DNA of 31,354 nt. Source: a virus. Taxonomy: Duplodnaviria > Heunggongvirae > Uroviricota > Caudoviricetes. The notes below the pieces were generated by a model. That model was not told the DNA's origin. It ran no database searches and saw nothing but the letters and a program-made list of their open reading frames with translations. Shown here piece after piece: positions 1 to 3,071 of the stretch. The stretch lies in the IMG/VR virus record IMGVR_UViG_2531839531_000012. One strand, 5' to 3'. Position 1 is the stretch's first letter, and every line of letters starts with the position of its first letter. The translations under genes were made by a program, and so were the position numbers.

Positions 1-837
1 TTTGACGATGAGGACAAAATCATCGGCATAGCGGCAGTACGCCACCGCGGGTTTCCACTGCCAGTTTTCTCTGACCGCCGTACTTCGGCCCCGTTGGATA
101 CTGTTATTCCAGTACCACCGATCTTTTCTGGCTTTCCCGCTCAGGTAGCGCTCATGCAGGTATTGATCGAACTCATTCAGCATGATGTTCGATAATAGCG
201 GCGATATAACACCGCCCTGTGGCACACCTTCACTGGCCGCCCGAAAGAGACCGACATCGATATGTCCCGCCTTGATGGTTTTCCACAGCAGAGTCATGAA
301 ACGTGCGTCACTGATCCTGCGGCGTACAGCCTTCATCAGCAGTCGATGATGTACGGTGTCGAAGTAACTGGACAGGTCGCCTTCAATCACCCAGCGTCCC
401 CGGGTTTCACCACAGTCTGTGAGCTGTAATTTCACCGTGCGGATAGCGTGGTGGACACTGCGCTCAGGCCGGAAGCCATATGAGAGTGTATGAAAATCAC
501 TCTCCCATTTCGGCTCCATCGCCATCAGCATGGCCCGCTGAACAATACGATCCCGCAACGCGGGGATACCCAGTGGTCGCAGTTTGCCGTTGCTTTTAGG
601 GATGTAAACCCGTCTGGCGGGCAAGGGCTGGTAGTGGCCTGAGAGTAATTCATCCCTGAGGATTTGCAGCTCAACAGCCAGTCTGGCCTGTAGCATTGTT
701 TTGTTCACGCCATCAACGCCGGGGGTATGGGCCCCCTTTGATGAAAGCGTGATCCGCGCCGCTTCAGCCAGCCATTCTGGTTTGTTATCAGACGCAGCAG
801 CCGTTGAATCCGTAGGGACGGATCGGTGACTGCCCAT
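1..837 (-). CDS. Group II intron reverse transcriptase/maturase, N-terminal 279 aa (3'-partial at window edge)
   Basis: My own minus-strand translation gives MGSHRS...KGAHTPGVDGVN...LRPLGIP...YGFRPERS...GDLSSYFDTV...PQGGVISPLLSNI...YADDFVLIVK, containing RT motifs including YADD. The ATG at 837 is the first in frame; an upstream GTG start is possible. Confidence 0.85.
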   Translation of the reverse strand, partial: MGSHRSVPTDSTAAASDNKPEWLAEAARITLSSKGAHTPGVDGVNKTMLQARLAVELQILRDELLSGHYQPLPARRVYIPKSNGKLRPLGIPALRDRIVQRAMLMAMEPKWESDFHTLSYGFRPERSVHHAIRTVKLQLTDCGETRGRWVIEGDLSSYFDTVHHRLLMKAVRRRISDARFMTLLWKTIKAGHIDVGLFRAASEGVPQGGVISPLLSNIMLNEFDQYLHERYLSGKARKDRWYWNNSIQRGRSTAVRENWQWKPAVAYCRYADDFVLIVK

Positions 838-1528
838 GTGGCAAGCTTGCGTTGCATTTCGCTGATTATCAAAGGTCTTCACCTCGTTAGGTCAGTTAAT
901 TCACGTCGCAAACACATTCAAACTGCTTCCCTTCGCCATGTAATGGGCTTTCCCCATCGCGGACTACTACGGAAGCTCCGCCAGCCAGCGCGTCATCGGA
1001 GCCATGCCCCCTTAACATCCGTCGCTGACCTTCCCCGGTTTACCTGCCTGGACTCAGGCATACTGAGGAGGCTGCCCGTCGCACTCTTTATCCTTGCTTG
1101 CCGCAAGTTGGCAGAAGTCAGCAACGCAAGCGTGATAGACGCTGCTGCCCCGGTGTTTCGCATACATGTCAAAACACCTTCGACCGGCAGTGCTTACGTA
1201 TTACTGCCAGTTCCTCCTGCACGGCCTGTCAGATCACGTAGGCCGTGGTGACGTTTTCAACCCACAGAGGCGGATTAACGGGTTCATGTTCTTCAGCCTT
1301 TCAGTACTTAACCTTGAGGATCATCTCGGCTTAGTGATCTCGCCTCAATCCCCGTTGTCAGCGGGTTACATCACCCTGCGGGCATGCCGCAGGTCACTGC
1401 CGCTCAGGTTCTCCACCGTCACACCCGGTGGGATTGTTGGGTTTCTCATCGTGAGTTACCGGTTCAATATTCCAGACAGACTCGCGGTTCATTTAAGCAT
1501 CCATGCCCGCCCTGAACTCCGGGCACAC
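1..1528 (-). mobile_element. Group II intron, 5' portion (RNA domains I-IV with intron-encoded protein ORF); 3' end lies beyond the window start
   Basis: Minus strand reads GTGTGCCC... immediately after IS orfB codons ...GDVTY (junction 1529|1528), a GUGYG-type 5' splice-site start. About 690 nt of structured non-coding RNA precede an RT ORF, the usual domain IV placement. Confidence 0.8.
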
Positions 1529-1967
1529 TATAGGTCACATCACCGCACCACACCTGATTTGGCTCGGTCACGGCGAACTGCCGTTCAAGGTAGTTAGGGA
1601 TAGCAACATGTTCATGACCACCACGTTTATACCGGTAAGTCGGCTGCTGACAGCTGACCAGCCCCAGCTCTTTCATGAGTCTGCCAGCAAGCCAGCGCCC
1701 CATCTGGTAGCCTCTCTGGGTTGCCATTGTGGCGATGCTTCTTGCTCCGGCAGAGCCGTGGCTGATGCCATGCAGTTCAAGTACCTGGCTGCGTAATACA
1801 GCCCGTCTGCCGTCTGGCTTTTCAGGACGGTTTTTCCAGTATTTGTAGCTGCTGCGATGGACCCCGAACACATGGCAGAGAGTGGCCACAGGATAACGCG
1901 CCCTGAGTTTCCCGATTATCGAGAACTGTTCAGGGAGTCTGACATCAAGAGCGCGGTAGCCTTTTTT
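1529..1967 (-). pseudogene. IS911-like transposase OrfB, 5' fragment interrupted by group II intron insertion
   Basis: Frame gives ...[20 protein letters not shown] (IS3-family DDE transposase N-terminal region), then reads into intron sequence (SVPGVQGG...) and stops. Confidence 0.75.
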
Positions 1968-2218
1968 AATATTTCATTTTCCATTTCAATACGTTGTAGC
2001 TTTTTCCTGAGCTCACGGATTTCAATTTGTTCCGGGGTAATGGGGGAGGCTTTTGGTGTTTTTCCCTGCCGCTCATCACGTAATTGTTTCACCCATCGCG
2101 TCATTGTGGAAAGGCCGACATCCATAGCGCTGGCTGCATCTGCCACGGTGTAATTCTGGTCAACGACCAGTTGAGCGGATTCGCGTTTAAACTCTGCGCT
2201 GAAATTTCTTTTTTTCAT
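1916..2218 (-). CDS. IS911-like transposase OrfA (HTH DNA-binding protein)
   Basis: [29 protein letters not shown]...[19 protein letters not shown], 100 aa. Start at the internal Met of track ORF 1916..2254. Confidence 0.85.
1961..1967 (-). promoter_or_regulatory. A AAA AAG programmed -1 ribosomal frameshift heptamer (OrfA to OrfAB)
   Basis: Plus strand CTTTTTT at 1961-1967 is the minus-strand AAAAAAG near the 3' end of orfA, where the orfB frame opens. Confidence 0.6.
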
Positions 2219-2290
2219 TATGGCACCTGTGTTGTTCTGAGGTGAGCATATCACCTCTGTTCAGGTGGCCAAATTCAGTAAACCACTTCA

Positions 2291-3071
2291 ATTTAAACAT
2301 CCTTCCTTGACGTGTGGATAGTTCGTCATAGAGCCATTTAGGAATCGGAACAGTTCTATTCTTCTTACCTTTGGTTTTGGTGAAGGTCAGCTTGTAGGGT
2401 GAGAGTTGAGCGCGTGTAAGCCTCTCGGCTTCTCCCCATCGTGCACCGGTTGCCAAACATACCTTAACAATCATCGTAAGATTTTCTTTGCCATATTGTT
2501 CACAGGCTCGGAACAGCTCCGGGAGCTGAGACAAAGTTAGCCAGGACATTTCTTTCTCAGCTTCTTTGAATACGCGAATCCCGTCCAGTGGATTGGGTAA
2601 ACTCCACTCCCCTAATCGTCGCAGTTCATTGAACACTGCTTCGAGGTATTGCTGCTCGCGATTGACAGTTATAGGTTTGGCGATCCACTTCGCCGGGTCT
2701 TTGTGATAGCCGTTGTCTATTTCGCCACGTAATCGACGGTCACGGTAATGAGCCCAATCTTTAGCGGTAAGACGAGATGCAATAGGGTCGCCCAACCCGT
2801 TACATACGATTTGAAGCTTTGCCAACCGCGACTTACTGGCTACTAACGCCTGACCGTGCAAATTGTGCCAAAGCTGAATAATCTCACTTAAGCGTCGGCG
2901 GTCTTCTTTCTTGCCGAGCCACGGCTTATCTTCACTCTCGCTTTTGGTAAATGCTTCGAATGCCTCGGCCTCACCTTTGGTATTGAATTGACGACGTATA
3001 CGCCGCCCTTCCCGGCCATTTGGATAAAGCTCACATAACCATTTACCATTTTTTTGCTTACTTACTGTCAT
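2291..3071 (-). pseudogene. int: P2/186-type tyrosine integrase, C-terminally truncated by the IS insertion
   Basis: N-terminal 260 aa (MTVSKQKNGKWLCELYPNGREGRRIRRQF...CLATGARWGEAERL...NRTVPIPKWLYDELSTRQGRMFK) has the P2 Int pattern. The segment normally carrying the catalytic H-x-x-R and Tyr is replaced by IS sequence from 2290 leftward. Confidence 0.8.

Follow-up and report, generated by a model that had tools for sequence, protein, structure and literature searches.

The stretch analysed here (hereafter the window) comprises 31,354 nt of a Caudoviricetes prophage (IMG/VR record IMGVR_UViG_2531839531_000012), and its first 3071 nt hold a nest of three elements: the group II intron E.c.I4 lies in the transposase gene orfB of an IS911-like insertion sequence (IS), which in turn lies in the integrase gene (int) of the prophage. 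An exact look-up of the chimeric 294-aa integrase frame (see below) traced the window to the 84.7-kb draft contig AQFE01000032.1 (assembly GCA_000356625.2), which ends 2 nt past window position 1. This end falls in the reverse transcriptase (RT) gene of the intron, and the left side of the nest was read from a sister genome instead. That genome, L018, is a complete 4.94-Mb chromosome (CP189652.1) reached by exact look-up of the neighbouring YebY/DUF2511 protein. A sister prophage with an empty site (L013) was used as the uninterrupted reference, and a locus of E. coli DA33135 (L001) provided a full copy of the IS::intron composite. The features at the locus are as follows.

Positions 2291 to 3071, minus strand: 5' part of the prophage tyrosine-integrase gene (781 nt; codons 1-260 plus 1 nt; 186/SW9-type), a predicted pseudogene.
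Positions 2187 to 3071, minus strand: chimeric 294-amino-acid (aa) open reading frame (ORF), taken from the ORF list and made of Int residues 1-260 and 34 IS-encoded residues by read-through of the IS left end.
Positions 2291 to 2293, minus strand: left copy of the 3-bp target-site duplication (AAT in the integrase sense), from comparison with L018 and L013.
Positions 1529 to 2290, minus strand: left 762 bp of the IS911-like IS3-family element (ISEc52), with the left inverted repeat from 2290, orfA, the frameshift site and orfB exon 1.
Positions 1916 to 2218, minus strand: IS orfA, 100 aa, HTH, intact (Pfam HTH_Tnp_1, 6.8e-14).
Positions 1961 to 1967, minus strand: A6G slippery heptamer AAAAAAG, read from the sequence.
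Positions 1529 to 1889, minus strand: orfB exon 1, ending ...QVWCGDVTY plus the first nucleotide of an Ile codon (ORF list).
Positions 1 to 1528, minus strand: first 1528 nt of the 2270-nt group II intron E.c.I4, in the sense orientation of orfB and cut by the contig end.
Positions 1 to 857, minus strand: ltrA (RT/maturase), the N-terminal ~285 of 502 codons, with the ATG at 857-855 and YADD at 30-19 (alignments to L001, L002 and L018).

The outermost layer is a severed integrase gene. A tblastn search with the intact 340-aa Int of sister prophages that have the same YebY protein placed residues 1-260 with 100% identity at window 3071-2292 and detected no second integrase in the window. The Int_N domain was found by Pfam at residues 57-169 (4.1e-31), and just positions 2-75 of the 172 of the Phage_integrase model were matched by the window ORF. 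Compared with the intact 349-aa Ints of SW9 and E. coli, the frame is colinear up to residue 260 (...RQGRMFK) and continues into unrelated sequence; at the nucleotide level the homology stops at ...ATGTTTAAAT / TGAAGTGG, with the IS terminus at 2290. The 80 C-terminal residues that are lost hold the motifs HVLRHT, LGH and RYAHF, that is, the catalytic His/Arg, the His and the Tyr nucleophile, and the first catalytic Arg (in ATGARWGE) is the sole member of the R...HxxR...H/W...Y set that is retained. Since HxxR, His and Tyr are gone, the window int is by its sequence a catalytically dead pseudogene, predicted to yield no functional tyrosine recombinase. The exact 294-aa chimeric protein is present on at least five NCBI contigs of several assemblies, and the int/IS junction recurs in a second assembly series (L007), in IMG/VR contig L008 and in one complete chromosome. 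An exact 40-mer laid over this junction had no match in the GTDB representative genomes; it matched one IMG/VR contig, L008, which likewise ends within the IS. Degenerate patterns for the IS right end and the int 3' junction matched nothing among genome, metagenome and viral contigs. The first pattern for the int 3' junction took Pro at residue 261, as in SW9, and the lineage has Ser (TCC), which made a match impossible.

The element that interrupts int shares several traits with IS911/ISEc52, namely the same TGAAGTGG...CCACTTCA inverted termini, a length of 1250 bp, orfA with an HTH, the A6G site, orfB with an rve/DDE domain and a 3-bp duplication. The termini are of the TG...CA form, with the left inverted repeat TGAAGTGGTTTACTGAATTTGGCCACC from 2290 and the right inverted repeat ...GGTGGCCAGTTTTTGTTGACCACTTCA in L001 and L018. 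In IS911, the A6G motif directs a programmed -1 frameshift that makes OrfAB. The IS and intron of the window are 98.5-98.9% identical to K-12 IS911A, which agrees with the earlier description as IS911-like. Many complete E. coli genomes have, at other loci, composites annotated as "IS3-like element ISEc52 family transposase" together with ltrA, and these are 99.8% identical to window 1-2291 as a whole. Unlike in plain IS911/ISEc52, orfB is broken here by the intron, so that the transposase would need splicing or supply in trans. In strain A27, the match extends by 12 nt past the IS end; with four mismatches in 13 nt, this extension was treated as chance.

The complete nest can be read in L018, with which window 8640-1 shares 99.977% identity; there are two differences only over the 8.6 kb, both within ltrA. 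The int 5' part of L018 reads ...TTTAAAT / TGAAGTGG, followed after 3520 bp by CCACTTCA / AATCCTGCTACC..., with the right flank of the IS also given as CCACTTCA / AATCCTGC. At its empty site, L013 has ...TTTAAATCCTGC, or in a longer excerpt ...TTTAAATCCTGCTACC.... The 3520-bp composite is thus made up of 1250 bp of IS and 2270 bp of intron; AAT stands on both sides of the IS in L018, the left copy alone lying in the window, and the int 3' fragment is intact there and codes for ...HVLRHT...RYAHF up to the stop. The clean AAT duplication and the empty L013 site therefore indicate a simple insertion, as expected of an IS911-type element. The initial annotation, made from the window letters, had proposed the three-level nest and an integrase frame leaving int at the IS terminus at 2290, before the catalytic His/Arg/Tyr segment, and both proposals are upheld by the window matches and the L018 structure. 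It had also pointed to the left side as the place to seek domain V/VI, the remainder of the IS, and the int 3' fragment with its target-site duplication, and L018 has all of them. An int intact on resequencing or an intron lacking domain V/VI was named there as contrary to the nest; what L018 offers is an interrupted int at both junctions and a domain V/VI match (RF00029, 64.9 bits).

The innermost layer begins at junction 1529/1528. The orfB frame runs to ...QVWCGDVTY and then reads A / GTGTGCCC, so that the cut lies 3' of TATA (1532-1529). The intron starts with GTGTGCCCGG..., its first base being 1528 on the minus strand, and the 5' boundary consensus GUGYG is represented by GTGTG at 1528-1524, straight after the orfB exon ...GACCTATA. 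Hence the break after GDVTY by a GTGTG element with a YADD-bearing RT frame, as first described, is correct. All the sequence statements of the initial annotation thus hold, on matches of database grade rather than chance ones. In full copies, the intron ends with ...CTCTTACTCTAC and is followed by the exon TCTGGACGGGT (IWTGK...), which gives the exon junction GACCTATA / TCTGGACG. In-silico removal of the intron restores an open orfB with a Pfam rve match of 1e-31, and the insertion point lies inside this rve (DDE) domain, directly past the first catalytic Asp. In the full copies of L001 and L018, which are 99.9% identical, domain V/VI is recognised at the intron 3' end with a score of 64.9 bits, the gathering score being 40. 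Rfam searches of the window itself (at the gathering threshold, and at an E-value threshold on positions 1-1700) returned no intron family, domain V/VI lying past the contig end. Matches to CRISPR-DR8 (E = 0.65) and CsrB (E = 7.3) in the window were weak and were dismissed as chance. A search for exon-binding and intron-binding sites (EBS/IBS) gave only G-U-rich candidates of atypical layout, pairing intron positions 263-269 and 275-282 with exon positions -7 to -1 and -16 to -9.

Researchers have found that E.c.I4 inserts at specific positions in the transposases of IS629, IS911, ISEc16 and ISEc31 (PMC3522654), and it has been assigned to class A among introns whose ORFs have no endonuclease domain (PMC3552965). 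The copy described here has the same type of host gene and the same site, orfB of IS911/IS629-type IS3 elements, and a protein with RT and X domains only; it differs by a private 1-nt deletion in ltrA and by having only 1528 of the 2270 nt in the window. S.f.I1 is the Shigella counterpart of E.c.I4 and is 99% identical. The intron is common in the host species, and a 61-nt piece of it was found at 4768 places in 2185 of the 5426 complete E. coli genomes. The closest described parallel is the IS911A-eyeA-ykfC locus of K-12 prophage CP4-6, which likewise lies inside a prophage and has the same intron at the same point of the same IS911-type element. This locus aligns gap-free to composite positions 1-2526 at the same 98.5-98.9% identity. 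The K-12 copy is interrupted in its IS part by IS30A at ~335, and IS5 truncates the composite at 2526, in the RT gene, leaving 1764 nt of intron. This 1764-bp fragment of MG1655 is catalogued as E.c.I4-tr1 (supplement of PMC3522654), and it is 98.9% identical to the window and full intron and has the same exon-intron junction. Unlike the K-12 copy, the one studied here lies in an integrase gene and is complete in the sister genome.

We also noted that the segment of the K-12 small RNA EyeA (b4690) is contained in the window at 1065-1139 on the minus strand, with 75/75 blastn identity, in intron domain I (nt 390-464). Judging from this position, "EyeA" may be a stable intron RNA fragment rather than an independent small-RNA gene, both here and in K-12. 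Another observation concerns DA33135 and many other strains, where ISEc52::E.c.I4 sits within a copy of IS30, with IS600 and the sat toxin gene as neighbours (L001 2225-6899), forming a deeper nest.

The coding capacity of the intron deserves separate consideration. The window holds only the RT part of the protein, the maturase domain and domains V/VI lying outside it, and this part gave an RVT_1 match of 8.7e-27. The full 502-aa LtrA matches RVT_1 and GIIM (1.3e-10), and no HNH was matched in it at the search threshold. In its normal form, ltrA opens with ATG 857 (MQRKLATWAVTDPSLRIQRLLRLITQPEWL...). The window copy has lost 1 nt at 783/782 (ACACAACC to ACAAACC), a deletion that the initial annotation had overlooked and that shifts the frame at codon 26, leading to a stop 30 codons on. 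The other difference from L018 is a substitution at 509 (Ile to Lys), also in ltrA. The deletion is absent from L018, where the 502-aa ORF is intact, and among the 2690 matching E. coli records there was none whose best match was the deletion allele. We consider it to be either a very recent private crippling mutation or a draft error. The earlier suggestion that the intron may still splice and retrohome is accordingly weakened for the window copy.

The opposite view, that this intron copy is autonomous and active and that the deletion arose as an error of sequencing or assembly or is bypassed from ATG 837, remains a serious contender, which we rate somewhat short of even. It is favoured by the sister genome, where the ORF of 502 aa is intact and only two positions differ over 8.6 kb, by the lack of best matches to the deletion allele among the E. 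coli records, which fits an error, and by the location of the deletion near the contig end in a repeat. Moreover, from the in-frame ATG 837 the ORF is open through the RT domain. However, the deletion lies outside any homopolymer run, and strain A27 has a different, independent ltrA frameshift in the same stretch; therefore, crippled ltrA copies do occur. Furthermore, translation from 837 would put other residues in place of the first 26, which presumably belong to the conserved N-terminal region of the RT, so that the protein would have a foreign N-terminus and its function would be doubtful.

Taken together, we put the probability at roughly 90% that window 1-3071 represents one arm of a simple IS::intron insertion into the int gene of a 186/SW9-like prophage. 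A 1250-bp ISEc52, with the 2270-bp E.c.I4 in its orfB either already present or received later, would have landed in int. Entry of the IS between int codons 260 and 261 would have produced the 3-bp AAT duplication, which is typical for IS3-family transposition. E.c.I4 occupies its cognate homing site in orfB in the sense orientation, as a class A intron that encodes RT and maturase domains and no endonuclease domain. As is general for introns of this type, it would retrohome via nascent DNA strands at replication forks. The truncated Int would not carry out recombination, and the prophage would then not be excised by its own enzyme. OrfAB transposase could come only from spliced RNA or from another IS copy, and the window copy of the intron would need a maturase supplied in trans, if the ltrA deletion is real.

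A more complicated history, in which an IS-mediated deletion or inversion followed the insertion and left a rearranged remnant with the int 3' fragment and attL no longer adjacent, is quite improbable in our judgement. The left side does lie outside the source contig, relatives L016, L019 and L021 have large deletions and IS insertions, and L007 and L018 carry an ISL3-family element; yet L018, which is 99.98% identical and shares the junction, shows the simple structure flanked by the duplication, and there is no sign of rearrangement in the window. It is scarcely credible that assembly created the int/IS junction artificially, by running a chimeric contig through a repeat while int is really intact, for although the draft contig ends in a multi-copy repeat and sister prophages with an intact int exist, the same junction ORF is found on five contigs of several NCBI assemblies and on an IMG/VR contig, and a complete chromosome has both junctions with a clean 3-bp duplication.

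Several points nevertheless weigh against the simple-insertion reading or limit it. For the source strain, the intron 3' end, the IS right end, the duplication and the int 3' fragment are deduced from the sister genome. The EBS/IBS pairing with the IS exon lacks a convincing assignment, and we claim none. The ltrA deletion, 782 nt from the contig end and in a multi-copy repeat, may be a draft error. The order of events may have been either of two, the intron being in the IS already when int was hit, or retrohoming into it afterwards. Finally, what is said here about excision, splicing and transposition has the standing of prediction from sequence.

With regard to the prophage, window 2292-5400 shares ~91% identity with the Salmonella phages SW9 and SI22 and is related to PSP3 and 186, and the early genes are arranged in the order int, DUF2511/YebY, cI, cro/apl-like, cII and fil, as in 186, PSP3 and SW9. 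By these comparisons the prophage is classed as 186-like (Peduoviridae, Eganvirus), a P2 relative and not P2 itself; the former label "P2-Int-like" was right in pointing to a related phage, whereas the prophage is of the 186/PSP3/SW9 kind. SW9 Int has 88% aa identity over the aligned ORF and near-identity in residues 1-260. Compared with SW9-type Ints, the window Int is cut at residue 260, and the intact allele of its lineage has 340 aa rather than 349. The prophage site in relatives lies between yfiB and rplS. Over 7143 nt, the early region differs from that of int+ relatives by seven substitutions and no indels; the insertion therefore looks recent. The late genes have sizes as in a complete 186-like phage. 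Because the Tyr nucleophile and the His/Arg box are lost, excision by the prophage's own Int would be barred, and we infer, in agreement with the initial annotation, that the prophage is unable to excise by this route; it is probably excision-locked rather than decayed.

Other observations concern the relatives of this prophage and its accessory genes. Between int and attL on the yfiB side (L013 7423-9776; L018 from 10946), there are genes for a 492-aa PtuA-like AAA ATPase and a 289-aa HNH protein, followed by yfiB. These two proteins match PADLOC PDC-M01A and PDC-M01B (E = 2e-158 and 1e-141, respectively) and constitute a Septu-like candidate defence pair. In L019 (GCA_036586025.1), the same int is independently broken by an IS1 near codon 305 (~L013 7277-7288). 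The large deletions already mentioned for this group of relatives (L016, L019 and L021) are internal to the prophage, giving a truncated A gene or a cII fused to gpU. All the int-disrupted or deleted relatives retain cI, yebY and the cargo by attL. L007 (1-302) and L018 (1-765), which both share the int::IS junction, have an ISL3-family transposase just past replication gene A, where the window has DinI-like and other genes, which corresponds to an extra IS insertion or a deletion in L007 and L018.

We speculate that the repeated independent loss of int, by ISEc52::E.c.I4, by IS1 and by large deletions elsewhere, with the immunity region and the PDC-M01 pair kept, might reflect selection to "ground" a useful prophage and not neutral decay; separately, the 3.5-kb IS::intron might transpose as one splicing-dependent unit. 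We hold these ideas to be unlikely.

Further along the window, replication gene A and the portal gene are separated by an ORF of 263 aa (9626-10417, plus strand) that has no Pfam match and only weak PtuB-like PADLOC hits (E = 8e-5), and it may be accessory cargo. A 261-aa ORF at 19894-20679 stands on the opposite strand (minus) within the late-gene region, matches UPF0489 in Pfam (E = 5.6e-8) and looks like an inserted accessory gene. The distal tail-fibre segment at 23739-24913 did not align with the otherwise ~94-95% identical relatives L009-L012, which fits the usual variability of a host-range cassette.

The immediate consequences are for annotation. The 294-aa "integrase" ORF should be read as a chimeric pseudogene, the "transposase fragments" flanking ltrA as the two exons of one orfB, and the ltrA frameshift merits a recheck. 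Every layer of the nest is an ordinary event of an already described type, and the inner two levels are a catalogued arrangement. The locus is a clean and recent example of the catalogued E.c.I4/IS911-type tandem disabling a prophage integrase, with little import beyond annotation. Nevertheless, the prophage is probably excision-defective while otherwise looking complete, which is relevant to the prediction of its inducibility.

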